Assembly: GCA_041664585.1 (NCBI GenBank)
Contig: JBAYKL010000001.1
Coordinates: forward strand, 4,592-68,591
Direction of reading: 5' to 3'
DNA: 64,000 nt
From: Minisyncoccota bacterium
GTDB lineage: Bacteria > Patescibacteriota > Minisyncoccia > Phycocordibacterales > GWA1-40-21
Shown: positions 11,648 to 31,534 of the stretch, in pieces
How the letters are laid out: each line of letters opens with the position of its first letter
Numbering within the stretch: the first letter of the stretch is position 1
Program-made: the position numbers and the translations under genes
Notes under the pieces: generated by a model
What the model was told of the DNA's origin: nothing
Databases searched by the model: none
What the model saw: the letters and a program-made list of their open reading frames with translations, nothing else

Positions 11648-14600
11648 ATGAAAAATCAAAAACAATCCCAATATGACCACACAAAAATAGAAAAAAAGTG
11701 GCAAAAATATTGGACAGCAAAGAAAATTTACAAAACAACTGAAGATACTAAAAAAGAGAAACTATATGTTCTTGATATGTTTCCATATCCATCTGGTGTG
11801 GGTCTTCATGTGGGTCATCCTAGGGGCTATGTAGCTTCTGACGTTTACGCCCGTTTCAAAAGAATGAATGGCTTTAATGTACTTCACCCTATGGGTTACG
11901 ACGCTTTTGGTCTTCCTGCCGAACAATATGCTATTCAAAATAAAATACATCCTAAAAAAGCAGTTGAAGAAAATATTGAAACATTTAGAAAACAATTAGA
12001 TTTAATTGGTTTATCTTATGATTGGTCTCGTGTAGTAAACACAACTGATCCAAAATATTATAAATGGACACAGTGGATTTTTCTTAAGCTCTATGAATCT
12101 TGGTATAACAAAATAAGTAATAAAGCTGAACCCATTGAAAATCTTACAAAGTTTTTTGAGAAAGAAGGTAATCAAAATATTGATGCGGTTTGCGATTCTG
12201 ATATAAAAATATTTTCAGCTACAGAATGGAAATCTTTCAGTGATTTAGAAAAGCATAATATTTTAATGAAATATCGTTTAGCTTTCGAAGGTTTTTCAGA
12301 AGTTAATTGGTGTCCGGAAATGGGAACTGTTCTTGCGAATGATGAAATAATAGATGGACCAGATGGTAAACCAGTATCTGAAAGAGGCGGTTATCCCGTA
12401 GAGAAAAAAACATTGAGACAGTGGTTTTTGAGAATTACAGCCTATGCGGATAGACTTATAGAAGGATTAGATAGAGTAGATTGGTCTCAACACATAAAGG
12501 AAATACAAAAAAATTGGGTTGGAAAATCCATTGGTTCTGAAATAACTTTTGCTATAAAAGGTATGGAAGAAAAAATAAACGTGTTTACAACCAGAGCTGA
12601 TACTTTGTTTGGTGTTACTTACGTTGTTCTTGCTCCAGAGACTGATTTGGTAAAAAAGCTTTTATCAAAAATTTTAAATAGAAAAGAAGTAGAAAAATAT
12701 ATTGCGGACGTAAAACTTAAAACAGATGAGGATCGTATGAGTACTGTTAAAGAAAAAACGGGTGTGATACTCGAAGGTGTAAAAGCTATTAATCCTGCAA
12801 ATCAAGAAGAAGTACCAGTGTTCGTCGCGGATTACGTTCTAGCTACCTATGGTACGGGTATGGTAATGGCCGTACCTGCACATGATGACAGGGATTTTGC
12901 TTTTGCAAAGAAATATAATTTACCTATAAGAGAGGCTATCGTTCCAGAAAGAATAGACAAAAGAAACCCACCTGTTCCTGGTAAGAAAATTGTAGAAAGA
13001 AAAAATGTGCATGTGGTAGTTAAAAATCCAAAAACAGGAATGTATGTTGGTTTAAAATACAGAAAACACGATTGGACCACTTTCCCGATGGGTGGAATTG
13101 AAGAGGGAGAAAGTTTGATTGATTCTGCCAAGAGAGAATTACTTGAAGAGACTGGTTACAAAAATGTCACTGAGGGTGTTATTTTAGGTGGACAAGTTCG
13201 TGCGGAATATTTTGCTGCTCATAAGGATCAAAACAGAGTCTCTTATACAAATTTAGTGTATTTTGAGCTACTAGATGAAGAGAAAGAAAAAATTAGTGAT
13301 GAGGAAAATGAAGAACACGAAGTAATATGGCTTAGTGAAAAAGATATAAATTCAAGTTTGATGACTCACGCTGAAATGGATATTTGGCTTGATAGATTAA
13401 GCAAGGGGGATATTGCTTATACAGATAACGGTATTATGGTAAATTCCGGAGAATTTAACGGTTTAAATAATCTAGATGCAATAAAAAAGATTACAGATTT
13501 CGTTGGTGGAAAAATTGTTACTAAATACAAAATGCGTGATGCCGTATTTGCTCGTCAGAGATATTGGGGAGAACCCATTCCGTTAATACATAAAAAAGAT
13601 GGGACGATTTCTACTGTAAACGAAAACAAATTACCACTAGAGTTACCAAACGTTATCTCGTATGAACCTATTGGGAATGGTGAATCACCGCTTGCTGGTG
13701 TAAAAGATTGGGTAGAAAAAGGTTACGAAACAAATACAATGCCTGGTTGGGCAGGATCTTCCTGGTACTTCTTACGTTATATGGATCCACAGAATAAAAA
13801 AGGCTTTGTTGGAGAGAAAGCTTTAAAATATTGGAAACAGGTAGATATGTATGTAGGTGGTGCTGAGCATGCTACTGGGCATTTATTGTATTCAAGATTC
13901 TGGAATAAGTTTTTATTTGACTACGGGCTTGTTATTGAGGATGAACCATTCAAAGCTCTTAGGAATCAAGGAATGATACAAGGTTCTGATGGAAGAAGAA
14001 TGAGTAAGAGATGGGGGAACGTTGTAAACCCAGATGAGGTTGTAAAAAATGTCGGCGCAGATACTTTGAGAGTTTACGAATCATTTATGGGGCCTTTTGA
14101 GCAAGAAATTTCTTGGAGTACAGATAGTATGGTTGGATCAAGAAGATTCTTGGAAAGAGTATGGAAGCTTCAAGAAAAAGTAGTTGCAAATTTTGCAGAT
14201 TCAAGCGAAACAGAAGCACTTTTACACAAAACAATTAAAAAAGTTGGAGAAGATATAGATTCATTTAATGCAAACACAGCTATTTCTTCTATGATGATTT
14301 TGTTAAATCATTTAGATGGAATAGAGAGTATTAGCGAAGACTTATATTTGAATTACATAAAAATCCTTTCACCTTTTGCGCCACATATGTGTGAAGAAAT
14401 TTGGGCAAATTTGGAACAGAAGAAATCTATAGTATTAGCAGATTGGCCTAAGTATGATGAATCAAAAATAAAGTCTGCGAAGGTAAATATACCTGTGCAG
14501 ATAAACGGTAGAGTAAGAGCATCGCTTATTGTTGACACTGATCTTGACCAAACATTAGTAGAGAAGCTTGCTTTGGAAAATCCTGATGTTAAAAAATGGC

Positions 14601-14665
14601 TTGAAGGTAAAGAAATAAAGAAGAAAATATTTGTTAAAAACAAAATTTTGAACTTAGTAATTTAA
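11648..14665 (+). CDS. leuS: leucyl-tRNA synthetase with an inserted Nudix hydrolase domain
   Basis: HVGHPRGY (HIGH motif), the CP1 editing domain and KMSKRWGN (KMSKS motif) are all present. At 1005 aa it is about 150-200 aa longer than typical bacterial LeuRS. The insert at roughly nt 12945-13430 contains a perfect Nudix box GGIEEGESLIDSAKRELLEETGY. Confidence 0.9.
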   Translation: MKNQKQSQYDHTKIEKKWQKYWTAKKIYKTTEDTKKEKLYVLDMFPYPSGVGLHVGHPRGYVASDVYARFKRMNGFNVLHPMGYDAFGLPAEQYAIQNKIHPKKAVEENIETFRKQLDLIGLSYDWSRVVNTTDPKYYKWTQWIFLKLYESWYNKISNKAEPIENLTKFFEKEGNQNIDAVCDSDIKIFSATEWKSFSDLEKHNILMKYRLAFEGFSEVNWCPEMGTVLANDEIIDGPDGKPVSERGGYPVEKKTLRQWFLRITAYADRLIEGLDRVDWSQHIKEIQKNWVGKSIGSEITFAIKGMEEKINVFTTRADTLFGVTYVVLAPETDLVKKLLSKILNRKEVEKYIADVKLKTDEDRMSTVKEKTGVILEGVKAINPANQEEVPVFVADYVLATYGTGMVMAVPAHDDRDFAFAKKYNLPIREAIVPERIDKRNPPVPGKKIVERKNVHVVVKNPKTGMYVGLKYRKHDWTTFPMGGIEEGESLIDSAKRELLEETGYKNVTEGVILGGQVRAEYFAAHKDQNRVSYTNLVYFELLDEEKEKISDEENEEHEVIWLSEKDINSSLMTHAEMDIWLDRLSKGDIAYTDNGIMVNSGEFNGLNNLDAIKKITDFVGGKIVTKYKMRDAVFARQRYWGEPIPLIHKKDGTISTVNENKLPLELPNVISYEPIGNGESPLAGVKDWVEKGYETNTMPGWAGSSWYFLRYMDPQNKKGFVGEKALKYWKQVDMYVGGAEHATGHLLYSRFWNKFLFDYGLVIEDEPFKALRNQGMIQGSDGRRMSKRWGNVVNPDEVVKNVGADTLRVYESFMGPFEQEISWSTDSMVGSRRFLERVWKLQEKVVANFADSSETEALLHKTIKKVGEDIDSFNANTAISSMMILLNHLDGIESISEDLYLNYIKILSPFAPHMCEEIWANLEQKKSIVLADWPKYDESKIKSAKVNIPVQINGRVRASLIVDTDLDQTLVEKLALENPDVKKWLEGKEIKKKIFVKNKILNLVI

Positions 14666-14666
14666 T

Positions 14667-14704
14667 ACAACACGGCCGAGAGTTTAAACTCTCGGCCGTG
14701 TTGT
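14667..14704 (+). terminator. rho-independent terminator after leuS
   Basis: Perfect long palindrome acaacacggccgagagttt/aaactctcggccgtgttgt. Confidence 0.85.
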
Positions 14705-14814
14705 ATAATTATATATTATACAACAACACATTTGACTTTATTTCTAATGGGTGCTAATATCATTTCCATAAAGATATATCGTCAATATCAAGTTTTATTA
14801 ATAATTTTATTTGT

Positions 14815-15846
14815 ATGTCAACAACAAGTTTCAAACCAAAGCAGGTTTCTAAGAAATTACTCGGTGCGCTTCAAGAGAGATCAAAAGATGTCATTATAAG
14901 AAGATATGGTCTTGGAAAAGATCCTGAATTAATGACTCTCGATGCTATTGGTAAGATTTATGGTATTACAAGAGAAAGAGTAAGACAGATAGAAAATCAC
15001 GCTCTTAATGCAATTAGAAAATCTAAGAATTACACAGAAGAGAAAGCTGTTTTTGACGAAATAGAAAAGCTCATCCACAAACTTGGTGGAATAATTGTAG
15101 AACAAGATCTCCTAGATTTCGTATCAAAGGATGCGAATACACAAAGCCACATGAACTTTCTTCTTGTCGTTGGGCATCCATTCAAGAAAGTAAAAGAAGA
15201 TGAAGACTTTAAACACAGATGGCTTATAGACGAAACTCTTGCAGATAAAATCCACAATTCATTAAAGAAACTTTATGAATCTTTGAAAGACAATGAACTT
15301 GTTTCTGAACCAGAAATAATAAAAGCTTTCTTGGGTTATATCGAAGACGTTGCTGAACAATATAAAACAGAAGAAATCGCAAAGAGATGGCTCGGACTTT
15401 CTAAGAAGATAGGAAAGAATCCACTTGGTGAATGGGGTAAATCAGAATCTTCAAACATTAGCACAAAGGGTATGAGAGACTATGCGTATCTTGTTATAAG
15501 GAAACATGGTTCACCTATACACTTCAGAGAAGTTGCAAAAGCTATTACTACTGTATTTAACAAAAAAGCTCATGTTGCGACAACTCACAATGAACTTATA
15601 AAAGACCCAAGATTTGTACTTGTCGGAAGAGGCCTATATGCTCTTACAGAATGGGGTTATATGAATGGTGTTGTAAAAGATGTCATAAAGAAACTCATTG
15701 AAAAGAATGGTGCAATGACAAAAGCAGATGTTGTAGAAAAAGTGATGAAAGAAAGATATGTAAAAGAAAATACTATCATCATAAATCTTCAGAATAAGAA
15801 ATACTTTAAGAAAAACAAAGACGGAAAATACGAAATAGTGAAATAA
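14815..15846 (+). CDS. sigma-70 region-4 domain protein with C-terminal HARE-HTH (RNAP delta-subunit-like) domain
   Basis: Residues 20-70 (GLGKDPELMTLDAIGKIYGITRERVRQIENHALNAIRK) align with region 4.2 of the rpoD in this window. The C-terminus (GSPIHFREVAKAI...RFVLVGRGLYALTEWGY) fits the HARE-HTH pattern. Confidence 0.6.
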   Translation: MSTTSFKPKQVSKKLLGALQERSKDVIIRRYGLGKDPELMTLDAIGKIYGITRERVRQIENHALNAIRKSKNYTEEKAVFDEIEKLIHKLGGIIVEQDLLDFVSKDANTQSHMNFLLVVGHPFKKVKEDEDFKHRWLIDETLADKIHNSLKKLYESLKDNELVSEPEIIKAFLGYIEDVAEQYKTEEIAKRWLGLSKKIGKNPLGEWGKSESSNISTKGMRDYAYLVIRKHGSPIHFREVAKAITTVFNKKAHVATTHNELIKDPRFVLVGRGLYALTEWGYMNGVVKDVIKKLIEKNGAMTKADVVEKVMKERYVKENTIIINLQNKKYFKKNKDGKYEIVK

Positions 15847-15850
15847 CTTA

Positions 15851-15876
15851 AAAACCACCCAAATGGGTGGTTTTTA
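15851..15876 (+). terminator. rho-independent terminator
   Basis: Hairpin ccacccaaatgggtgg with a flanking A-run and T-run. Confidence 0.8.
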
Positions 15877-16664
15877 AGTTTATTTTAATAGTGTATAATT
15901 ATAGGGTGAAAGAATTTTTTAAGAAAAAATATACGAGTGTTGCTATAATACTTTTTGTTGTTTTTTTAATTTCAGGAATGTTTTTTTCTCCTACATATAA
16001 AAAAGTATTTCAAGCTGTTTATTCGAAGATTTCTCAATTTGCTACAGTGCTTTCCTCTACACTTGTGTTGCAAACAAATAATTTTAGAGCAACAAACAAT
16101 GAAAACGGTTTAGTTGTAAGTGATTTACTTACCAAAGCAGCTCAAATGAAAGCAGACGACATGGCTTTGAAAGAATACTTCTCTCATACTGGTCCACAAG
16201 GCGAAGAGCCTTGGCTCTGGTTTGATAAAGTAGGATATAAATATAATTATGCTGGAGAAAATCTTGCAGTGGACTACACAGAATCTTCTGATGTTACAGA
16301 AGGTTGGATCAATTCTGCAAAACACAAAGCAAATCTATTAAACAAAAATTTTACTGAAATAGGTATCGGTGTGGCAGACGGAATATTTGAAGGACACAAA
16401 ACAACTTTCGTTGTTCAGTTCTTTGCCAAACCACTTGCAGCTAATGAAGTCGTTCAGAAACAAGAAACATCTACTGTTACTAAGCTTTTATCATTAATAA
16501 AAGCTGAGACTCCAGTAAGCACAAGATCTGGACTATCTAAAGGAGAGGTTCTTGGTGTTGAGTCAGTAAATGTAAAATGGAATGATCAGAAAACGCTTAC
16601 TGTAATCGGAGTTATTACTCTAGTCATTTTGATTATATTTATATTTAGAAAAAAACATGAATAA
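15867..16664 (+). CDS. membrane-anchored CAP/SCP (PR-1-like) domain protein
   Basis: CAP domain motifs are present (HTGPQGE...AGENLA...GWINSAKH...EIGIGVA). There is an N-terminal TM segment and a C-terminal TM segment with a basic tail. The true start is probably downstream, near 15905, because the ORF-track start lies inside the terminator. Confidence 0.6.
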   Translation: MVFKFILIVYNYRVKEFFKKKYTSVAIILFVVFLISGMFFSPTYKKVFQAVYSKISQFATVLSSTLVLQTNNFRATNNENGLVVSDLLTKAAQMKADDMALKEYFSHTGPQGEEPWLWFDKVGYKYNYAGENLAVDYTESSDVTEGWINSAKHKANLLNKNFTEIGIGVADGIFEGHKTTFVVQFFAKPLAANEVVQKQETSTVTKLLSLIKAETPVSTRSGLSKGEVLGVESVNVKWNDQKTLTVIGVITLVILIIFIFRKKHE

Positions 16665-17424
16665 AAAGTCATCATTTTTTATTATAGCTCTATGTATTTC
16701 TTTTTTTCCATTTAATTCTTTTGCTCAAACAGCTTCCTCTACACCTGTAAAAATAAATGCGAGAATATTACCAACAATTTGGTACTCAACACTTTCTGTA
16801 AATGATGGAGATAGTATAAGGATCTACGCTGGTATACAAAATAACTCAGGAATTGATTTCTCTGGTACTGCAGTTTTTTATGTAGATAATGAAGAGATAT
16901 CAAAGAAGACTTTTGCTTCGAAAAAAGATAGTTTAAAAGATATTGATGTGAATTGGGTTGCAAATCCAGGTACACACAGTGTACAGGTAAAAGTTTCAAC
17001 CGATCTCTCTTCAAGCAAAGAACTGGTGTCTTATGAGAGTGATAAATCACGTATTAGTATTACACGTAAGGTTACCTTAGAAGAAGTAAAAGAAACCGCC
17101 TTAAATACTGCTTCTAATATAATAGACAAAGCAGATGAGCTAGCTTCTAGTTTAGCCCAAAAGATTGAGAGCTATAAGCAACCTATAGAATCTATTGGTA
17201 ATAATGTTAAGAGTACCGAATCTACATCAACGGCAAACAAGGGTCGTGTTTTGGGTGTTTCTACGAGCTCAATATCAGATTATAAAAGTTCCAGTACAAC
17301 AAAATCTATTTTAAATATGTTTTTAGACTTTTTAGCTTTTTTTGTTAGAAATTGGAAATGGACCATTCTTGGGATAGTAATTTTAATTGTTGTAATTAAA
17401 ATTAAGAAAAGTAGAGAAGAATAA
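16657..17424 (+). CDS. secreted protein with signal peptide and C-terminal TM anchor
   Basis: Signal peptide MNKKSSFFIIALCISFFPFNSFAQ. The C-terminus has TM segment ILGIVILIVVI followed by KIKKSREE. Confidence 0.55.
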   Translation: MNKKSSFFIIALCISFFPFNSFAQTASSTPVKINARILPTIWYSTLSVNDGDSIRIYAGIQNNSGIDFSGTAVFYVDNEEISKKTFASKKDSLKDIDVNWVANPGTHSVQVKVSTDLSSSKELVSYESDKSRISITRKVTLEEVKETALNTASNIIDKADELASSLAQKIESYKQPIESIGNNVKSTESTSTANKGRVLGVSTSSISDYKSSSTTKSILNMFLDFLAFFVRNWKWTILGIVILIVVIKIKKSREE

Positions 17425-17425
17425 T

Positions 17426-18520
17426 ATGCTCTCAAAATTATTTAAAATAATAAAAAAATACGAAAGAATTTGTTCTGCACTAGGCCTTGTCTCTGGTATT
17501 GTTCTTACCCCACTCGCTCTTACTCGTGTAGACCAACCAATTGAAAATGTTTGGATAGTAGCACACTTACTCATAGCTATTTTTGGTATTATGGTTTTAA
17601 ATTATCATGATAATAGAGTTGCAAAAGGTAGGTCTGCAGAAAAACATAATGAGATAATACATTTTTGGTTTTCTATACTTATACAATTTGCTTATGGTAA
17701 CCTTTTTACTACTTATATAGTGTTTTATTTTAGAAGCGCTGTTCTTTCTTTTGCTTGGCCATTTTTACTTTTGATTTTTACTTTACTTATTGGTAACGAA
17801 ATTTGGAAAAAACATTATCACATTCTTACGCTGCAACTAGCAACTCTTTTTCTTGCAGTATACATGTTTGTGATTTTTGGTTTACCAGTTCTTTTAAAAC
17901 GCATTGGAGATGACGTATTTCTTTGGTCTGGTGTTTACAGTTTACTTTTTATATTTATCTTCGCTTTAGTACTCTGGAGTTTTACAAAAGAAAAATTCAA
18001 AAAAAGTAAAAAGGGGTTAATTTTTAGTATTTTAGGTACATATCTCATAATGAATGGGATGTATTTTTTGAATATTATTCCCCCAATTCCTTTATCTTTG
18101 AAAACCGCTGGGGTATATCACGATCTTTCCAAGAATTCAGATGGTGATTATGTCGGGCACGAAGAAAACTATGATTGGAAGAAATATTTTGTGAAGTATC
18201 CCATTTTCCACAGAGTAGATGGTGAACCTGTTTATGTATTCGGAGCAGTTTTTTCTCCAGCAAAATTAAATACAAAGATATACCATAAATGGCAGTATTT
18301 TGATGAAGGTGAAAAGAAGTGGGAAGATTCAATGTTATTAGAAATATCAATTGTTGGTGGTAGGGAAGGCGGATACAGAATTTATTCTTCCAAAGAAGCT
18401 GTGTTTCCTGGGCTTTGGAGGGTTGATGTTCTTAATGTAAATAAACAAATTATAGGTAGGTTGAAATTCAAGATAGAGAATAGCGAATTAAAACAGAAAA
18501 TGGTTGAGGTTAAACTTTAG
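17426..18520 (+). CDS. integral membrane protein with C-terminal soluble domain
   Basis: About 6 TM segments followed by a roughly 130-aa hydrophilic domain. Confidence 0.5.
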   Translation: MLSKLFKIIKKYERICSALGLVSGIVLTPLALTRVDQPIENVWIVAHLLIAIFGIMVLNYHDNRVAKGRSAEKHNEIIHFWFSILIQFAYGNLFTTYIVFYFRSAVLSFAWPFLLLIFTLLIGNEIWKKHYHILTLQLATLFLAVYMFVIFGLPVLLKRIGDDVFLWSGVYSLLFIFIFALVLWSFTKEKFKKSKKGLIFSILGTYLIMNGMYFLNIIPPIPLSLKTAGVYHDLSKNSDGDYVGHEENYDWKKYFVKYPIFHRVDGEPVYVFGAVFSPAKLNTKIYHKWQYFDEGEKKWEDSMLLEISIVGGREGGYRIYSSKEAVFPGLWRVDVLNVNKQIIGRLKFKIENSELKQKMVEVKL

Positions 18521-21592: not shown

Positions 21593-24500
21593 ATGAAAAA
21601 AGCCGCAAACATTTTGATAGACGGAGTTACAGGGGGAAAGCTTGAAAAGAAATATTTCAGCAAGTTCAAAGAACCTCTAATAAAGACTCCAAACCTTGTC
21701 TGCCACCAAATGAAATCATACGAATGGTTTCTTAAAGATGGTCTCGCAGAAGTCTTCAAGGAGTTTTCTCCTATAAAAGACTATGCTGATAAGAAATTCG
21801 AATTGTCTTTCACTGACTTCGAAGTCTTGGCTCCTAAGAATGATGAAAATAGTGCAAAGGAGAAAAAGATTTCTTATGATGCTCAGCTTAAAGCAAAAGT
21901 TAAACTAAAGAACAAAACTCTTGGAACTGTAAAAGAACAGGAAGTATTCCTTTCTGATTTACCTTTGATGACAGATCACGGTACTTTTATTATAAACGGT
22001 ATTGAAAGAGTCATCGTTCCTCAGCTTGCTCGTTCATATGGTGTATTCTTTACTCTTAATGATGCAAAAGGTAAAAACTTCTTTGGTGCAAAGATTATTC
22101 CAGCAAGGGGTGCTTGGATAGAAGTAGAATCAGAATCTGACGGTGCTATATATGTCAAAATCGACAAGAAAAGAAAATTTGCGGTTTCTTCTCTTTTAAG
22201 AGTTTTGGATATAAAGACAGATAAAGACATTTTAGATCTATTTAAGAGTGATGAAGTTACTACAAAAGTAATGGAACTTACTCTTGCGAAAGACCATGCA
22301 AAAACTCAAGATGATTCTTTCCTAGAAATCTACAAGAAACTTAGAGATGGAGATTTGGCTTCTATAGAAAATGCCAAAGAATTTATAAAATCTATTTTCT
22401 CAAAAGAAAGATACGATATTTCAGGAGTTGGAAGATTTAAATTCAACAAGAGATTTAACTTATCAATGGATGAAAAGGTTTTAGAAAACAAAACTATTAC
22501 AGCAGAAGATGTTGTTTGTATAATCAAAAACATTGTTGCATTAAACAATGATCCAGAAGCTGTAGAAGATGATATCGATCACTTGGGCTCAAGAAGAGTT
22601 CGTTTCGTTGGTGAACTTATACAAGCTAAGGTAAGAGTTGGTATGGCTCAAATGAAGAGAAACGTTCAAGACAGAATGTCTACAATAGATCCAGATATTA
22701 CAACTCCAGTACAATTCATTTCTGCAAGACCGCTACAAGCTAGAATAAAAGAATTTTTCACAACCAACCAGTTGTCTCAGTTTATGCAACAGACAAACAT
22801 TCTTGAAGAAATTGAACACTTGAGAACTTTGTCAGCTCTCGGACCTGGAGGTCTTACAAGAGAAAGAGCTGGATTTGAAGTTAGAGACGTTCACCCTTCT
22901 CACTATGGAAGAGTTTGTCCTATTCACACACCAGAAGGTCAAAACATCGGTCTTATCTTAAGACTTTCAAACTACGCTAGGGTAAATGAATTTGGAATGA
23001 TCGAAACTCCTTATGCAAAAGTTGTAAAAGGTGTTGTTACAGCTGAAGTAAAATATTTCAATGCTTTAGAAGAAGAAGGTTTTAAGGTTGCTCACGGTGC
23101 TACTCACTATGATGAAAGCGGAAAGATTACTGATAAAGAAGTTGAGGTCCGTGTAAACGGTGTACCAACTCTTGTAAAAAGAGAAGACGTAGATCTTATA
23201 GACGTATCTGCAAACCAAGCTTTCTCTATAGCTCCATCTATGATTCCTTTCTTAAATCACGACGATGCAAACAGAGCTTTGATGGGATCAAACATGCAAA
23301 AGCAGGCTGTGCCTTGTATTATTCCAGAAGCTCCACTTGTTGCTACTGGTATTGAAGGAGAAGCTGCAAGATATACAGGAAGAGTTATATTTGCTGAAGA
23401 AGAGGGTATTGTTTCAAAAGTAGATTCATCAAAAATTGTTATTAAAGGTGCAAAGACTGGTAAAGATAAAGAATATAAACTTGTTGCATATTCAAGAACA
23501 AACGGTTTTACTCCTTTCCACCAGAGACCATCTGTAAATCTAGGACAGAAAGTTAAGAAGGGTGATTTACTTGCCGATACATCCTCATCTGTAAATGGTG
23601 AAATGGCTATTGGTCAAAACGCTCTTGTTGCTTTCATGACTTGGAGCGGTGCAAACTATGAAGACGCTATTGTCCTTTCAGAAAGACTCGTAAAAAATAG
23701 CAAATTCTCATCAATTCACATCGAAGAATTTATCGTAAACGTTCGTGATACAAAACTTGGACCAGAGGTTACAACACATGATATTCCAAACGTCGGTGAA
23801 GCTAAATTAAAGAACTTAGACGAAGACGGTATTGTAAGAGTTGGAGCGGAAGTTATGACAGGAGATATTCTTGTTGGTAAAATTACTCCAAAAGGTGAGA
23901 CTCAACTTACACCAGAAGAAAGACTTCTTAGATCTATTTTCGGTGAAAAGGCTCGTGATGTAAAAGATACTTCAAAGAGACTTGAAAGTGGAAAGAGAGG
24001 AAGAATTATTTCTGTAAAGGTTTTCTCAAGAGAAAATGGAGACAAGCTCGAATCAGGAATTATAAAGAGAATTCACATTGAAATTGCCCAACTTAGAAAC
24101 GTATCTGTTGGAGACAAACTTGCTGGAAGACACGGAAACAAAGGTGTTATTTCAAGAATATTACCAGTAGAAGATATGCCTTATATGGAAGATGGTACAC
24201 CGGTAGATATTATTCTTACACCACTTGGTGTTCCTTCACGTATGAACCTTGGACAGATTCTTGAGGTCCACTTGGGTATGGCTGCAAATACTTTGAACTA
24301 TCAGGCTGTTGTTCCACCATTTATGGGTGCTACAGACAAAGAGATAAAAGAAGAGCTCGTAAAAGCCGGATTCAATTCAGACGGTAAGATGAAATTGTTT
24401 GATGGAAGAAACGGACAAGCTTTTGAACAAAATATTTCTGTGGGTTATATGTATATCTTGAAGCTGCACCATGAAGTTGAAGACAAGATACACATGAGAT

Positions 24501-24814
24501 CTATCGGTCCTTACTCAATGATTACTCAACAGCCTTTGGGAGGTAGAGCACAAGGAGGAGGTCAGAGATTCGGAGAGATGGAGGTGTGGGCACTTCTTGG
24601 ATATGGAGCAGCTTATACACTAAGAGAAATGCTTACAATTAAATCAGACGATATAGTAGGTAGATCAGCAGCATTTGACTCTATAGTTAAAGGAGAAAGA
24701 ATCAAAGAGCCAAACTTGCCTGCATCATTCAATGTGTTACTAAATAGCTTGAGAGGTCTTGGACTTGATGTCGAACTCAAGAAAGAAAAGATAGAAGATG
24801 ATATAAAAGAATAA
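21593..24814 (+). CDS. rpoB: DNA-directed RNA polymerase subunit beta
   Basis: 1073 aa with conserved RpoB blocks (GEMEVWAL, the rifampicin region, NMQRQAVP). Confidence 0.95.
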   Translation: MKKAANILIDGVTGGKLEKKYFSKFKEPLIKTPNLVCHQMKSYEWFLKDGLAEVFKEFSPIKDYADKKFELSFTDFEVLAPKNDENSAKEKKISYDAQLKAKVKLKNKTLGTVKEQEVFLSDLPLMTDHGTFIINGIERVIVPQLARSYGVFFTLNDAKGKNFFGAKIIPARGAWIEVESESDGAIYVKIDKKRKFAVSSLLRVLDIKTDKDILDLFKSDEVTTKVMELTLAKDHAKTQDDSFLEIYKKLRDGDLASIENAKEFIKSIFSKERYDISGVGRFKFNKRFNLSMDEKVLENKTITAEDVVCIIKNIVALNNDPEAVEDDIDHLGSRRVRFVGELIQAKVRVGMAQMKRNVQDRMSTIDPDITTPVQFISARPLQARIKEFFTTNQLSQFMQQTNILEEIEHLRTLSALGPGGLTRERAGFEVRDVHPSHYGRVCPIHTPEGQNIGLILRLSNYARVNEFGMIETPYAKVVKGVVTAEVKYFNALEEEGFKVAHGATHYDESGKITDKEVEVRVNGVPTLVKREDVDLIDVSANQAFSIAPSMIPFLNHDDANRALMGSNMQKQAVPCIIPEAPLVATGIEGEAARYTGRVIFAEEEGIVSKVDSSKIVIKGAKTGKDKEYKLVAYSRTNGFTPFHQRPSVNLGQKVKKGDLLADTSSSVNGEMAIGQNALVAFMTWSGANYEDAIVLSERLVKNSKFSSIHIEEFIVNVRDTKLGPEVTTHDIPNVGEAKLKNLDEDGIVRVGAEVMTGDILVGKITPKGETQLTPEERLLRSIFGEKARDVKDTSKRLESGKRGRIISVKVFSRENGDKLESGIIKRIHIEIAQLRNVSVGDKLAGRHGNKGVISRILPVEDMPYMEDGTPVDIILTPLGVPSRMNLGQILEVHLGMAANTLNYQAVVPPFMGATDKEIKEELVKAGFNSDGKMKLFDGRNGQAFEQNISVGYMYILKLHHEVEDKIHMRSIGPYSMITQQPLGGRAQGGGQRFGEMEVWALLGYGAAYTLREMLTIKSDDIVGRSAAFDSIVKGERIKEPNLPASFNVLLNSLRGLGLDVELKKEKIEDDIKE

Positions 24815-24842
24815 TTTTTTCAAAATAATAAAACAAAAATAT

Positions 24843-27800
24843 ATGAAAAATACAAAATCATCACCATCAAAAGACCAAGATTTTAATTTAGTCTCAATAA
24901 AGATCGCTTCACCAGAAAGAATAGCTGAATGGTCAAGCGGAGAAGTTACAAAACCAGAAACAATAAACTACAGAACTCAGAGATCTGAGAGAGGTGGTTT
25001 ATTTGATGAAAAAATCTTTGGACCTGATAAAGATTATGAATGTTATTGTGGAAAATACAGAGGTATAAGATATAAAGGAATTGTTTGTGAAAAATGTGGA
25101 GTTGAAATTACAAGATCTATTGTAAGAAGAGAAAGAATGGGACACATAGAACTCTCTACACCAGTTTCTCACATCTGGTTCCTTAGAGGCACACCTTCAA
25201 GACTAGGTCTTGTACTTGGAATGACAGTTTCAGACCTTGAAAAGGTTATCTATTTCGCTGGATACATTGTTACAAAAACAATTGAATCAGAAAGAGAAAG
25301 AATTCTAAGAGAAATTGATCAAGAATTTAAGAATAAAGTAAAAACTGTTGCTGACGAAAAAACAAAAGAAGCTCTCAAAGAGCTTGCAACAAATGCAAAG
25401 AAAGAAGTTGAAAGTATCCAAGAAGGAAAAGTTTTGGATGAGGTATTGTTCCATAAATTCTCTATTAAATACGGAGCTATGTTTGAAGCTGGTATCGGTG
25501 GAGATGTGATCTATGAGATATTAAAGAAAGTTGATTTAGTAGAATTAGCAAAGAAACTTGATGCAAATCTCGAGAAGGCTAATTCAATGGATACTGATAA
25601 GATAAACAAGAGACTTAGCTTCATAAGAAGCATGATTGCTTCAAAAGTTCGCCCAGAATGGATGTTCCTTACAAGAATCCCTGTTATACCACCAGCACTT
25701 AGACCGATGGTTCCACTTGATGGAGGCAGATTTGCTACATCAGATGTAAATGATCTTTACAGAAGAGTAATCAACAGAAATAACAGACTTGTAAAGTTGA
25801 AAGAAATTTCTGCTCCAGATGTTATTCTTAGAAACGAAAAAAGAATTTTACAAGAAGCTATTGACGCTTTGATAGACAACTCTATCAGACATGGTAATTC
25901 TTTATTCTCAGCTCTTGGAAGTGCATCACAAAAGAGACCACTTAAATCTTTGGCTGATAATCTAAAAGGTAAAAGAGGTTTGTTTAGATCAAACCTTCTT
26001 GGTAAACGTGTAGACTATTCTGGTAGATCAGTTATCGTTGTTGGTCCAGATTTACACTTGGATCAGTGTGGATTACCAAAGCATATGGCACTAGAATTGT
26101 TCAGACCATTTGTTATTTCACAACTTCTTTCAAAAGAATTGGCATTTAACATAAGAGGTGCAGGTAAACTCATAGATGAAGGAGTCCCAGAAGTTTGGGC
26201 TATTCTTGAAAACGTTATCAAAGGAAAATATGTTCTTCTAAACAGAGCTCCTACTCTACACAGACTTGGTATTCAAGCTTTCCAACCTATCCTTATAGAA
26301 GGAAATGCTATTCAGGTTCACCCACTTGTTTGTACAGCTTTCAACGCTGACTTTGACGGAGACCAGATGGCTGTTCACGTGCCGCTTGGTGAAGAAGCAC
26401 AAGCAGAGGCTAGAGAAATAATGGCAGCTGACAAAAACATTCTTAAACCAGGAAATGGTGATCCAACAATTTCTGCAAAACTTTTGGACATTGTCCTAGG
26501 TTGTTACTGGATGACAAAAATAATTCCAGGCGAAAAAGGTGAAGGAAAATATTTCCAATCAACAAACGCGGCTATCATGGCTTATGATTTAGGGGTGATT
26601 AGTTTGAGAGCAAAGATTCATATTCTTCCATCAGAAAAAGAAAAGTATGCACAATTTGATATGAAGCTTTTTGAATCATCAGTCGGTAGATTGTTGTTAA
26701 ATACTGTTTTGCCAGCGTCATACCCATATGTAAATAAAGAAATTGATAAGAAAGCGATGTCAAAGATTATTGATGATCTTATTATCAAAAATGGTCCAGA
26801 AAAGGTTGCTCCTATATTAGACAAGATTAAAAACTTTGGATTCAAATATGCTACTTATTCAGGTGTTACTTGGGGTATAGATGATATTCAAATTCCAAAA
26901 GAAAAAGGCGCTATCGTTTCTGTTGCGAAAGGAAAATCTTTGGAAGTTATGGATCAATTCAACGAAGGTTTACTTACCGATGAAGAAAGAGTAAGAAAGA
27001 ATGTTGAAATATGGCAAGGTGCTAAAAGTGAATTAGAAAAACTTATTCCAGATACTTTAGATCACAACGGTTCTGTATACGATATGTGGAAGTCTGGCGC
27101 TAGAGGATCTCTAGGATCACTTACTCAAATGGTTGGTATGAAAGGTTTGATTCAGAATACAATGGGTGAAACTATTGAGTTCCCAGTAATTTCTTCTTCA
27201 AAGGAAGGTCTTACACCGATCGAATACTTCATTACAACTCACGGTTCAAGAAAAGGTCTTACTGATACTGCTTTGAACACTGCAAAAGCCGGATATCTTA
27301 CAAGAAGACTATTCGATGTTGCACAAGATATTATAATTACGGAAGTTGATTGTGGAACAAAAGATAAGATTGCAATCAATAAATTAAGTGGTGTTGAATC
27401 AGGTGCTTCAATTGCTAAAAATATTAGAGGTAGAGTTCTTGCAGAAGATGCTGTTATGAAAGATGGAACTGTATTGTTCAAAAAAGGTTCTCTTCTTACA
27501 AAAGACGATGCTCAGAAGATAGAACAATCTGATGTAGAAAATGTATTTGTTAGATCACCACTTACTTGTAAAACATTACACGGAATCTGTGCTCATTGTT
27601 ACGGTATGGATCTTGGTAAGAGTGTCATGGTAGATGTGGGTGAAGCTGTAGGTACTGTGGCTGCTCAAGCTATCGGTGAACCTGGTACACAGCTTACTAT
27701 GAGAACTTTCCACGCTGGAGGTACTGCTTCTGTTGGTGGAGATATCACACAAGGTTTGCCTAGAGTTGAAGAAATCTTTGAAAAGAGAAAGCCAAAGAAT

Positions 27801-28526
27801 CCTGCTGTCGTAGCTACTGTTTCTGGTCACGTTACATCTGTAAAAGATTTTGGAAAGGAAAAAATAATTACTGTTATTGCTGACATAGAAGACAAAGGTA
27901 AGGTAAAGAAAACTGGTGAAGTTGAATACGTATTTAATCCAAAGAGAATGGCTTTGGTAAGAGCCGGAGACAATATCAAGAAAGGTCAGTTACTTACAGA
28001 CGGTTCTGCAGATATCGATGAAATATTCGAATACGCTGGAAGAGAAAGAGCTATGGATTACATTATTACTGAGGTAAGCAAACCCTATGAACTTCAGGGA
28101 GAAGCTGTTGCTAGAAAACACATTGAGATTATTGTTAAACAAATGTTCTCAAAGAAAGTTATTACAGACAGAGCCGATTCAGATTATTGTGTCGGTGATA
28201 TTATTGATGAATTAGACTTAGTGATGGAAAATAAACTTGCTAAAGAAGCAGACAAGAGAGAAATCGAAGCTGAATCTCAGGTTATGGGTATTACAGAATC
28301 TTCACTTTCTAGAAGAAGCTTCCTTTCAGCTGCATCATTCCAACACACGGTAAGAATTCTTATAAACGCCTCTGTTAAAGGAAACAAAGATGATCTAAGA
28401 GGTCTAAAAGAAAATGTTATCATTGGTAGAATCATCCCTGCAGGTACAGGATTCGCAGGTAGCAAGAAACATAAAATGATTTCTGATGTTAAGGCTCAGT
28501 TTGAAGACGAAGATTACGGTTACTAA
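24843..28526 (+). CDS. rpoC: DNA-directed RNA polymerase subunit beta prime
   Basis: 1227 aa with an N-terminal zinc finger, the catalytic NADFDGD motif and the trigger loop. Confidence 0.95.
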   Translation: MKNTKSSPSKDQDFNLVSIKIASPERIAEWSSGEVTKPETINYRTQRSERGGLFDEKIFGPDKDYECYCGKYRGIRYKGIVCEKCGVEITRSIVRRERMGHIELSTPVSHIWFLRGTPSRLGLVLGMTVSDLEKVIYFAGYIVTKTIESERERILREIDQEFKNKVKTVADEKTKEALKELATNAKKEVESIQEGKVLDEVLFHKFSIKYGAMFEAGIGGDVIYEILKKVDLVELAKKLDANLEKANSMDTDKINKRLSFIRSMIASKVRPEWMFLTRIPVIPPALRPMVPLDGGRFATSDVNDLYRRVINRNNRLVKLKEISAPDVILRNEKRILQEAIDALIDNSIRHGNSLFSALGSASQKRPLKSLADNLKGKRGLFRSNLLGKRVDYSGRSVIVVGPDLHLDQCGLPKHMALELFRPFVISQLLSKELAFNIRGAGKLIDEGVPEVWAILENVIKGKYVLLNRAPTLHRLGIQAFQPILIEGNAIQVHPLVCTAFNADFDGDQMAVHVPLGEEAQAEAREIMAADKNILKPGNGDPTISAKLLDIVLGCYWMTKIIPGEKGEGKYFQSTNAAIMAYDLGVISLRAKIHILPSEKEKYAQFDMKLFESSVGRLLLNTVLPASYPYVNKEIDKKAMSKIIDDLIIKNGPEKVAPILDKIKNFGFKYATYSGVTWGIDDIQIPKEKGAIVSVAKGKSLEVMDQFNEGLLTDEERVRKNVEIWQGAKSELEKLIPDTLDHNGSVYDMWKSGARGSLGSLTQMVGMKGLIQNTMGETIEFPVISSSKEGLTPIEYFITTHGSRKGLTDTALNTAKAGYLTRRLFDVAQDIIITEVDCGTKDKIAINKLSGVESGASIAKNIRGRVLAEDAVMKDGTVLFKKGSLLTKDDAQKIEQSDVENVFVRSPLTCKTLHGICAHCYGMDLGKSVMVDVGEAVGTVAAQAIGEPGTQLTMRTFHAGGTASVGGDITQGLPRVEEIFEKRKPKNPAVVATVSGHVTSVKDFGKEKIITVIADIEDKGKVKKTGEVEYVFNPKRMALVRAGDNIKKGQLLTDGSADIDEIFEYAGRERAMDYIITEVSKPYELQGEAVARKHIEIIVKQMFSKKVITDRADSDYCVGDIIDELDLVMENKLAKEADKREIEAESQVMGITESSLSRRSFLSAASFQHTVRILINASVKGNKDDLRGLKENVIIGRIIPAGTGFAGSKKHKMISDVKAQFEDEDYGY

Positions 28527-28558
28527 GTAATGTTGGTAGGTGAACAAAAACAAAAAAT

Positions 28559-30295
28559 ATGTCATCTTCCGTAGATAAAATAAAAGAAAGATTAAGCATA
28601 GAAGAGGTTGTCGGCTCATATCTCAAACTCGAGAAAGCCGGCAACAATTTCAAAGCAAGGTGTCCTTTTCATAATGAAAAAACGCCGTCTTTCTTTGTGT
28701 CTCCGGACAGAGGTTCATACTATTGTTTTGGTTGTGGAAACAAAGGAGATATTTTTTCATTCGTTCAAGAATTTGAAGGAATCGATTTTGTAGGTTCTTT
28801 AAAAATTCTTGCTGAAAGAGCGGGGGTAGAATTAGAAAAGAATCCAGCTAAAATCACAGATAAAAAGGAAAGATTGTATATGTTGCTTGATGCGACCACG
28901 ACTTTTCTTCAAAAGAATCTTCTTGCAGAAGATATTCCGCTTGAATATTTAAAGAATAGGGGACTCACAGAAAAAACAATTAAGGATTGGCGTATTGGAT
29001 ATGTTCGTGATGAATGGAGATCTATATATGAGCATCTTAAATCAAAAGGTTTTACAGATGATGAAATGCAAAGGGCTGGAGTCATAAAGACAGAAGGTCA
29101 AAATACATATGATAGATTTCGTGGAAGGATAATGTTTCCAATATTTGATAGTGCTGGTAGGGCGATAGCATTTTCTGGAAGAATACTTCATGATGATGGT
29201 AAATCTGCTAAATACTTGAATAGTCCACAGACAGAAGTATTTGATAAGTCAAAAACTTTGTATGGATACAACTATGCAAAACAAGCTATAAGAAAATTTG
29301 ATTTCTCAATCTTAGTTGAAGGTCAAATGGATCTCCTTATGTGTCACCAAAGTGGTTTTTCAAACGCCGTAGCTTCTTCTGGTACAGCTCTTACCTCACA
29401 ACACCTCTCTCTTCTTAAGAGAATTTCAAATAGAATAATAATGTCTTTTGATTCTGATAATGCTGGAGCAAAGGCTGCAGAAAGAGGTTGGATGTTAGGA
29501 CTTGCTTCTGGTATGGAAGTGAAAGTTGCAGCTATACCAAAAGGATATGATCCAGCTGACCTTATCTTGAAAGATAAAGAAGAATTCAAAAAGGTCCTAA
29601 AAGATGCAGTTCATATTATTGAATTTTTGTTAGATAGAGTGATTTTAGAAAATACAGATGAAAGAAAAATCGGTCTGGCAGTAAAAAATAAAGTCCTACC
29701 ATTTCTTTCTTTGTTAGATAGCAGTATGGAAAAATCACACTATGTGACAAAAATAAGTAATAAGACTGGTATAAAAGAAGACGCAATTTGGGAAGACTTA
29801 AAGAAAGTAAAGATAGATGATGACTATGTGGTTAAGGAAGAAGTTCACGAAGAGAAAGAAGAAATAAAGACTGGAATGCTAAGAAGCGGATCAGTAGAAA
29901 GAAGCTTGGCATCGATAATAGCCCTCATTGAATCTTCAAAAGACCAGATAACAAACCCAGAAGAATTGAGACAAAAAGTTAAGGACTCCGTTGGAGAAGA
30001 AAAGTATAGAGAATTTAGTGAAGAGTTGGAAAGTTTGAAAGGAGAACTTTCATTCGAAGCTGAAAGTTATTACGGAGGGTTAGAAAAAGAAAAATTTAAT
30101 AAAGAAGTTGAATATATCTTGCTAAATCTGCAAGAAGAAATATTAAAAAAGGAATTATCATCACATATGGTTGAGTTGAAGAAGGCAGAAGCACAGAAAG
30201 ATACGGAAAAGGCCACTTCAATACTCAAAAGATGTAATGATATAACAAAACTTTTAAACAATATAAAAAACGAAAAGAATAAAAAAATCAAATAA
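28559..30295 (+). CDS. dnaG: DNA primase
   Basis: Zinc-binding CPFHNEKTPSF...CFGCG motif and a TOPRIM domain (EGQMD, DSDNAG). Confidence 0.9.
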   Translation: MSSSVDKIKERLSIEEVVGSYLKLEKAGNNFKARCPFHNEKTPSFFVSPDRGSYYCFGCGNKGDIFSFVQEFEGIDFVGSLKILAERAGVELEKNPAKITDKKERLYMLLDATTTFLQKNLLAEDIPLEYLKNRGLTEKTIKDWRIGYVRDEWRSIYEHLKSKGFTDDEMQRAGVIKTEGQNTYDRFRGRIMFPIFDSAGRAIAFSGRILHDDGKSAKYLNSPQTEVFDKSKTLYGYNYAKQAIRKFDFSILVEGQMDLLMCHQSGFSNAVASSGTALTSQHLSLLKRISNRIIMSFDSDNAGAKAAERGWMLGLASGMEVKVAAIPKGYDPADLILKDKEEFKKVLKDAVHIIEFLLDRVILENTDERKIGLAVKNKVLPFLSLLDSSMEKSHYVTKISNKTGIKEDAIWEDLKKVKIDDDYVVKEEVHEEKEEIKTGMLRSGSVERSLASIIALIESSKDQITNPEELRQKVKDSVGEEKYREFSEELESLKGELSFEAESYYGGLEKEKFNKEVEYILLNLQEEILKKELSSHMVELKKAEAQKDTEKATSILKRCNDITKLLNNIKNEKNKKIK

Positions 30296-30322
30296 TTTAT
30301 TAAACTAATCTTTTATAAAAAA

Positions 30323-31534
30323 ATGGCGAAAAAAATAACAAAAAAAACAAAAATAAAAAAGGTTGTGAAATCTAAACCTATCAAAAAGCCTGTAAAAAAG
30401 GTGGTTGCTAAACCTGTGAAGAAATCTGCCACAGTAAAGGTTCCAAGAATTTCTGCAAAATCAAAGGAATTTGATATTAAGGCAGAAAGACTTCTCGTCA
30501 AAGGTAGAGAAAGAGGTTTCGTTACTTATGACGAGATTTTGAAGGAATTTCCAAAGATTGAAGAAGATATTGTTTTCTTGGACGATCTTTATTCTAAGTT
30601 TGCTACTGGAGGTATAGATATTCTTGAAGTCGGAGGCATTCTTGGTTTTGATGAAGAACAGGTTAAGAAATATACATATTCTGGTAAGTCTGCAGATGCA
30701 AATTACGACTCCATACAGATATATTTGAAAGAAATTGGTCAGTATCCTCTTATTACTGCAACTATGGAAAAAGATCTAGCTAGAAAGATATTGGCTGGAG
30801 ATGTAGAAGCTAAAAATCTTTTGGCAAAAGCAAACCTAAGACTTGTTGTCTCTATCGCAAAGAAATATGTTGGAAGAAGTGCAGACCTTACTCTCTTAGA
30901 CTTAATTCAAGAAGGAAACCTCGGTTTATTTAAGGCTGTAGATAAATTTGATTGGACAAAAGGTTTTAAGTTCTCAACATATGCTACTTGGTGGATTAGA
31001 CAAGCTATCACCAGAGCCCTTGCTGATCAATCTAGAACAATTCGTGTCCCAGTACACATGGTTGAAACTATCGCTAAGTATAAACAAGTTTACAGAAGAC
31101 TCTCACAAGACCTAGGTAGAGAACCTTTGCCAGATGAGATTGCTATTGAAATGGATATCGAAGTTGAAAAGGTTTACATGATTGAAAAGATTGATCAAGA
31201 TACTGTTTCTCTTGAAGCCCCTGTTGGAGATGACGGTGATGACGGTAAATCTACTTTGGGAGATTTCGTAGCAGACGACAAAATACTTTCTCCTGCAGAT
31301 GAATCATCAAGAAGAATCCTTTCAGATCAAGTAAAAGAAATTCTTGCAGACCTTTCTCTAAAGGAAAGAAAAATTCTTGAAATGAGACATGGGCTTGTAG
31401 ATGGTATCACTCACACTCTTGAAGAAGTTGGAAAAGAATTCGGTGTTACAAGAGAGAGAATAAGACAAATTGAAGCTAAGGCTCATGAGAAGATAAGACA
31501 GCATGAGAAGATAAGTAAGCTTCAGAGTTATTAA
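30323..31534 (+). CDS. rpoD: RNA polymerase sigma factor RpoD (sigma-70) with Lys-rich N-terminal tail
   Basis: Regions 1.2 to 4.2 are present ([29 protein letters not shown]). Confidence 0.9.

Follow-up and report, generated by a model that had tools for sequence, protein, structure and literature searches.

The open reading frame studied here encodes a protein that is best described as a new architecture assembled from known modules, which is present in the sequence databases and in one Tn-seq table and, as far as our literature searches show, has never been analysed. We refer to it as sigma4-wH (sigma-domain-4 winged-helix protein), considering that a sigma domain 4 at its N-terminus is followed by four winged-helix modules, wH1 to wH4. 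With a little less than even confidence, and on sequence grounds, we propose that it acts as an autonomous reader of -35-type hexamers, i.e. as an essential, lineage-specific promoter-binding transcription factor. The window, by which we mean the whole 64,000-nucleotide stretch of Minisyncoccota DNA that was analysed, contains the 343-codon frame as the original prediction described it, and the gene appears to be monocistronic here, as had been claimed, with a promoter-like site of its own and the predicted terminator-like hairpins on either side (Table 1). A reverse-complement TTGACA at 14816-14821 overlaps its start codon.

Table 1. Features of the sigma4-wH gene, its product and related signals; positions are those of the window, except for the coupling protein examples, which are given as locus and position.
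Feature	Position	Strand	Basis
Coding sequence of sigma4-wH, sigma domain 4 then four winged-helix modules; 343 aa, 39.5 kDa, pI 9.5	14815..15846	+	
Intrinsic-terminator-like hairpin closing upstream leuS; 19-bp stem, 10 GC pairs, then T-rich tail	14665..14706	+	
Promoter-like TTGACT-17 nt-TAATAT with TG extension, ~55 nt before the sigma4-wH start codon	14732..14760	+	Consensus match alone
Intrinsic-terminator-like hairpin directly 3' of the sigma4-wH stop codon	15845..15880	+	
Sigma-70 domain 4 (regions 4.1 and 4.2), aa 8-72, pI 10.4	14836..15030	+	Pfam, PDB profile, Foldseek
Recognition helix TRERVRQIE within sigma-70 domain 4, aa 52-60			
wH1, winged-helix-like, aa 73-139, acidic (pI 5.2)	15031..15231	+	Model, conservation
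wH2, aa 140-214, acidic (pI 5.4)	15232..15456	+	Model, hhalign
wH3 = HARE-HTH, aa 215-285, basic (pI 10.0)	15457..15669	+	Pfam, NCBIfam, model
wH4, aa 286-343, basic (pI 9.8)	15670..15843	+	Model, hhalign
Example TTGACA copies	6495, 6537, 21343, 47297, 52929	+	
Example TTGACA copies	1051, 49394	-	
Coupling protein genes directly downstream of a sigma4-wH match, examples	L051:1560-4307; L041:6027-8138		

The identity of the N-terminal module is supported by several comparisons. Pfam assigned Sigma70_r4 (PF04545) to residues 15-69 (E 3e-13, 49.5 bits against a gathering score of 24.1), BLASTP aligned residues 13-69 with residues 338-393 of the RpoD encoded in the same window (40% identity, E 4e-8), and a sigma4-wH profile matched sigma region 4 chains in the PDB with E values down to 2e-19. 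The alignment with this RpoD had been predicted, albeit to region 4.2 alone; it spans both regions 4.1 and 4.2. In NCBIfam, the N-terminus matches just the extreme C-terminal part of the RpoD, RpoS and SigA models. All sigma-model matches are confined to residues 6-85, and neither Pfam nor NCBIfam detected a sigma region 2 or 3 in the protein, ruling out a conventional sigma factor, as the original prediction had concluded.

The second recognizable module is HARE-HTH (PF05066), matched at residues 221-280 with E 9e-5 and 23.3 bits, slightly below the gathering score of 25.9. Residues 219-290 matched the NCBIfam model RNAP_delt_lowGC (TIGR04567; E 2e-6) with 27.7 bits, below the equivalog cut-off of 42, and the alignment of the sigma4-wH profile with the S. 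aureus delta NTD in the PDB covers the whole NTD and is not significant (E 0.11). Among 74 diverse family members, Sigma70_r4 was found in all 74 and HARE-HTH in 72 (E<=1e-3, best 4e-16). The profile searches that had been proposed as a check thus support both domains, with HARE-HTH marginally sub-threshold in the window protein itself. The predicted position of HARE-HTH at the C-terminal end has to be revised, as the module is followed by wH4, which gave a weak match to the Penicillinase_R winged helix, and is preceded by residues 73-214, which form two winged-helix-like modules in the AlphaFold model.

This model, computed with AlphaFold2 from an alignment of 74 family sequences, has a mean pLDDT of 97.0 and a pTM of 0.88, indicating that the protein is predicted to form one confident rigid body. 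The helices of region 4 (residues 8-68) are followed by four winged-helix units, of which the third is HARE-HTH, with an alpha-alpha-alpha-beta-beta topology at residues 220-277; structure prediction, the other check proposed, therefore returned both the sigma domain 4 and the HARE-HTH winged helix. wH1 is predicted to pack against region 4, and wH4 is folded (pLDDT above 90), containing 16 K+R versus 8 D+E. Comparison of the modules with one another by hhalign gave probabilities of 89.5% for wH2-wH4, 84.6% for wH3-wH4, 61% for wH1-wH2 and 59% for wH2-wH3, which would fit an ancient internal repetition of HARE-like winged helices; from these alignments, wH4 appears to be distantly related to the HARE-HTH module. 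The helix that follows region 4 was considered as a possible mimic of the beta flap-tip helix and rejected on sequence grounds, as the similarity score of 18 does not exceed the shuffle mean of 19.8 +/- 3.9.

In Foldseek searches, the region 4 module superimposed on PDB structures of sigma region 4 with an rmsd of 1-2 A and TM values to the target of up to 0.93. Whole-chain matches to the PDB were weak and comprised tandem winged-helix proteins, with an RpoE model at rank 36. The top full-length matches, UFL1/DDRGK1, Dcc1, the SelB C-terminus and AlkX/YcaQ, share with sigma4-wH the arrangement of consecutive winged helices in one body, but with TM values of ~0.2, E values of 3e-4 to 6e-2, no sequence relationship and unrelated functions. 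No viral protein in BFVD shares the architecture, the matches there being to sigma region 4 only.

The original prediction regarded the protein as a chimera. The searches replace this local fusion with an ancient single-architecture family found across CPR/Patescibacteria. HMMER over 1.84 billion cluster representatives yielded 581 clusters (50% identity) at E<=1e-30, and the best 150 of these are mostly near-full-length matches of 330-390 aa with 35-58% identity. The best 120 database relatives have lengths of 332-346 aa (341-346 in almost every case) and identities of 75-100%, and the Pfam pair is present in nearly all of them; close homologues of 341-346 aa number in the thousands, and a protein identical to that of the window has been recorded by NCBI, JGI and ENA on 2 contigs. 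The relatives are named 'sigma factor-like helix-turn-helix DNA-binding protein [Candidatus Paceibacterota]' or 'RNA polymerase delta subunit'. In a genomic search set of one genome per GTDB species, all full-length matches (L001-L066) came from CPR/Patescibacteria, including Paceibacteria groups, Saccharibacteria, Gracilibacteria, Peribacteria, Doudna-, Uhr- and Moranbacteria, and non-CPR genomes matched only with the region 4 segment, in ordinary sigma factors. A 62%-identical copy on contig JBBDIN010000155.1 (L010) is labelled Thermodesulfobacteriota and lies in an order that is typical of Paceibacteria, DUF5671, leuS, sigma4-wH, type IV coupling protein, mltG; the contig is probably a mis-binned CPR contig. 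Two fused forms were also found, one joining SecF to sigma4-wH (P0144), most likely a read-through of adjacent genes, and one joining AAA_14 to the C-terminal half of sigma4-wH (P0124); both are uninformative about function.

The family evolves slowly. Relatives share on average 59% identity with the window protein for sigma4-wH versus 48% for the neighbouring LeuRS, sigma4-wH having the higher value in 20 of 21 genomes, so that sigma4-wH appears the more strongly constrained and slower-evolving of the two. Positions are given here in E. coli sigma-70 numbering, which we mapped ourselves from the RFG and TRERIRQIE motifs. All 74 members keep the equivalents of the base contacts R584, E585, R586, R588 and Q589 unchanged, together with those of the backbone contacts R562, T572 and L573 and of G577; the R554 equivalent is R or K in all 74, and the T583 equivalent is T in 71. 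The positions at which activators contact sigma-70, R596, K597 and R599, are free to vary. Such a pattern would be expected if selection acted on the face of region 4 that reads DNA, and not only on a protein-docking face, although the invariance of the region 4.2 helix could partly reflect fold constraints. In HARE-HTH, residues H236, F237, H258, N259, L261, L269, G271, R272, G273, Y275, L277 and G285 are invariant, and wH1 is poorly conserved except for G91 and W136.

A likely counterpart of sigma4-wH has already passed through a genetic screen. SEML1_0294 of Southlakia epibionticum, which we equate with the family on the basis of architecture, length and synteny, is listed in Tables S1 and S2 of Wang et al. 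2023 (Cell; PMC10633639) under the PROKKA name 'RpoS', with a length of 1050 bp, PF04545 at residues 27-72, PF05066 at residues 225-283 and 'HTH HARE-type domain-containing proteins' as best structural matches; it is flagged there as core and as Patescibacteria-enriched (families of Meheust et al.). The published ECOD parse into one tri-helical (sigma-4-like) and three winged domains (PMC10633639) has nearly the same boundaries as our model, with wH1 joined to region 4 as one domain. Starting from a Saccharibacteria member, a search retrieved many members of 349 aa, none of which carries the Southlakia name. In the Tn-seq experiment the gene scored as essential (ES) at each of the three passages: the input DNA contained 24 insertions, and 1, 1 and 2 were left after selection (PMC10633639). 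Its essentiality argues against a dispensable regulator. Southlakia has two sigma-annotated genes, SEML1_0294 and rpoD, the latter essential as well, and the name 'RpoS' is a mis-naming. SEML1_0294 is absent from the main text of that study (PMC10633639), a 2024 perspective on unexplored Patescibacteria biology mentions neither sigma nor transcription factors, and our literature searches found no paper tying HARE-HTH, sigma region 4 or delta to CPR.

The signal that such a protein would read can be followed in the window itself. TTGACA is 2.6-fold depleted, with 18 copies observed versus 46.6 +/- 7.05 expected, and 10 of the 18 lie in non-coding DNA, which makes up 10.3% of the window (binomial p 2.7e-6). 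A TAnnnT hexamer occurs 16-18 nt downstream of 8 of the 10 non-coding copies versus 1 of the 8 coding ones. Judged by these counts, TTGACA works as a true -35 signal here and, because the surviving copies are mainly non-coding and mostly have a -10 partner, its depletion indicates the purging of spurious -35 elements from genes. The RpoD of the window (30323..31534) is complete, with regions 1.1, 1.2, 2, 3 and 4, and its recognition helix is the same as that of sigma4-wH, so both proteins should read the same hexamer. The genes rpoB, rpoC, dnaG and rpoD are contiguous and co-directional at 21593-31534 (+).

Taken with the conservation pattern, these observations frame the role that we propose. 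The N-terminal module appears to reproduce in full the domain 4 of a primary (group 1) sigma factor, with its -35 reading surface intact; since this whole surface is retained, sigma4-wH most likely binds TTGACA-type hexamers, and it would do so alone, outside the holoenzyme and without a sigma region 2. Compared with domain 4 of RpoD/SigA, the module has the same fold, the motif T-R-E-R-[VI]-R-Q-I-E and all -35 base-contact residues, but it stands alone at an N-terminus, lacks the C-terminal activator-contact residues as conserved positions, and is accompanied by none of regions 1.1, 1.2, 2 and 3, implying that sigma4-wH is unable to engage the beta' clamp helices or to melt the -10 element. 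The basic pair wH3 and wH4 would probably contact flanking DNA, and the acidic pair wH1 and wH2 would probably provide a protein-contact surface, plausibly for RNA polymerase (RNAP). As a result, the -35 regions of promoters would be occupied or marked, in competition with the sigma-A holoenzyme or handing over to it, a role that would be of a housekeeping kind in organisms with almost no other transcription factors. WhiA, a widely conserved bacterial DNA-binding protein that carries a sigma-region-4-like HTH on a degenerate LAGLIDADG scaffold, may serve, by analogy, as a precedent for the use of such an HTH outside a sigma factor; the two proteins have no homology beyond the HTH, and that of WhiA is more diverged from sigma region 4.

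An alternative that we consider unlikely is that sigma4-wH is an RNAP-bound accessory subunit, with HARE-HTH on the beta' shelf/jaw in the manner of the delta NTD, or with sigma domain 4 on the beta flap-tip in the absence of sigma-A, or both, acting in recycling, in sigma exchange or as an anti-sigma-like factor. Delta is the closest NCBIfam family to the HARE-HTH module, Foldseek lists an RpoE model, the profile alignment covers the whole S. aureus delta NTD, and JGI calls many members 'RNAP delta subunit'. The flap-tip helix of the window RpoB, TPEERLLRSIFGEKA, is canonical and nearly identical to that of E. coli, which means that the docking site for sigma domain 4 exists. Slow evolution and a rigid multi-domain body would also suit a part of a large machine. 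The HARE-HTH helix-3 surface of sigma4-wH (HNELIKD) includes acidic side chains, and the partner bound by this fold in delta is the beta' subunit and not DNA (PMC7749165), which together would allow for a primarily RNAP-bound role.

Against an accessory subunit of this kind stands first of all the comparison with delta. The delta-like character claimed in the original prediction holds at the level of the HARE-HTH fold, which module 3 appears to share with the NTD of Firmicutes delta (RpoE), and goes no further. B. subtilis delta ends in a polyanionic disordered C-terminal region, residues 91-173, with a net charge of -47 (PMC7749165); this effector region is missing from sigma4-wH, where its place is taken by a folded, basic winged helix, and the HARE-HTH module is embedded in a four-module array. 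The acidic tail is lacking, the equivalog cut-off is not reached (27.7 versus 42, with the PDB delta match at E 0.11) and the family occurs in CPR and not in Firmicutes; sigma4-wH is therefore not a delta subunit. A compact 39-kDa body would also be unlikely to use both canonical docking sites at once, as the flap tip is on the opposite side of RNAP from the beta' jaw. A purely protein-docking role would leave the invariant DNA-contact residues unexplained, and these residues favour the reading of -35-type DNA over a role as a protein-protein 'flap competitor'. Each of the roles put forward in the original prediction, namely competition with sigma at the beta flap or at -35 elements, an anti-sigma or appropriator function and the tethering of RNAP to DNA, may nevertheless apply.

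The neighbourhood of the gene hints at another possible partner. In CPR genomes, the typical order is leuS or secD-secF, then sigma4-wH, a family that we labelled F1, mltG and mnmA, and the families recurring around sigma4-wH at 66 CPR loci are leuS, secDF, a VirD4-like type IV coupling protein (T4CP), mltG, mnmA, an ATP-cone/Mrr protein and DUF5671. F1 was identified as this VirD4/TraD-like T4CP through its fused Saccharibacteria forms, of ~900 aa with Walker motifs, and through the Southlakia annotation; elsewhere it is split into a membrane and an ATPase gene, and the membrane half gave no match in Pfam, NCBIfam or a PDB sequence search. A T4CP gene adjoins sigma4-wH downstream and co-directionally in 54 of 67 CPR loci; the two genes are separated by a median of 79 bp and overlap in some cases. 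This conserved adjacency hints that the protein may have a different, DNA-transfer-related role, e.g. as a DNA-binding accessory of the VirD4-like coupling ATPase in DNA uptake or transfer, like relaxosome or T4CP accessory proteins, a possibility we regard as very unlikely. The order is alike in Southlakia, where SEML1_0294 is followed by SEML1_0293, and CPR T4CP genes lie mostly at a distance from virB4 (preprint 10.1101/2025.01.22.634366), which is in line with a partner of this kind. In contrast, the Southlakia T4CP gene directly downstream, SEML1_0293, is non-essential (PMC10633639), as opposed to the essential sigma domain 4 protein. In the window, the gene has terminator-like hairpins on either side and, although the linkage to leuS is retained, no F1/T4CP, mltG or mnmA gene is present anywhere in the 64 kb. 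The other neighbours, leuS, secDF, mltG and mnmA, are housekeeping genes, implying that the T4CP linkage may simply be conserved gene order.

The place of the T4CP-mltG-mnmA genes of the relatives is occupied in the window by an apparent envelope cluster at 15867-18520 (+), encoding a CAP/SCP-domain protein, a Pfam-less protein with an apparent signal peptide and a DUF2914 protein that seems to be embedded in the membrane. Upstream, the 1005-aa LeuRS (11648-14665, +) contains a NUDIX hydrolase domain (PF00293, E 5e-14) at residues 451-574, inserted directly after the editing domain, and the LeuRS proteins of L001, L010, L021 and L022 are similarly long. Membership of the MZA anti-phage system was considered and rejected: an MzaA model in NCBIfam matched region 4 alone, aligning residues 11-72 with positions 646-706 of 726 at a score of 58 versus a cut-off of 800, the PADLOC match (E 5e-8) is likewise confined to region 4, the system requires a ~700-aa MzaA within an mza gene cluster, and the context of sigma4-wH is one of housekeeping genes.

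We consider it highly doubtful that sigma4-wH is a non-canonical initiation factor, be it the region-4 half of a split sigma of the SigO-RsoA type or a sigma-like protein with winged helices in place of regions 2 and 3. The sigma domain 4 is complete and, by its sequence, -35-competent, and Southlakia has only one true sigma factor. Tandem winged helices of archaeal and eukaryotic initiation factors bind the clamp, which offers a possible analogy for the second variant. On the other hand, sigma4-wH contains no region-2-like segment, the window RpoD is complete from region 1.1 to region 4, and RpoD is essential in Southlakia; among the recurring neighbour families identified at the 66 CPR loci there is no sigma-like family, and the split sigma was rejected as no region-2 partner is found among them. 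An artefact, in which an assembly or gene-calling error would have joined a piece of a sigma gene to an unrelated one, has nothing but the unusual domain pair in its favour and is already refuted by the identical records from NCBI, JGI and ENA on 2 contigs, the thousands of close homologues, the ~581 clusters at E<=1e-30 and the single-chain model with a pLDDT of 97.

The autonomous reading of -35-type hexamers by an essential, lineage-specific transcription factor is thus the role that we prefer, and a more far-reaching form of it can be envisaged. In that form, which we consider distinctly unlikely at present, sigma4-wH would act as an additional general factor, essential and specific to the lineage, in which a free-standing 'second sigma domain 4' carried by winged helices reads the -35 element independently of sigma-A and bridges to RNAP through HARE-HTH or the acidic winged helices. 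If true, promoter recognition in Patescibacteria would be mechanistically unlike the textbook sigma-holoenzyme model. The automatic names given to the family, 'RpoS', 'RNAP delta subunit' and 'sigma factor-like HTH protein', are misleading. Saccharibacteria are now transformable, with Southlakia as the only genetically tractable species, so that the hypothesis is directly testable. CPR/Patescibacteria account for a large share of bacterial diversity and have tiny genomes with very few recognizable transcription regulators; as it is restricted to CPR, more tightly conserved than LeuRS, represented by an essential counterpart and built from a housekeeping -35 head, sigma4-wH is a prime candidate for a lineage-defining component of their transcription machinery.
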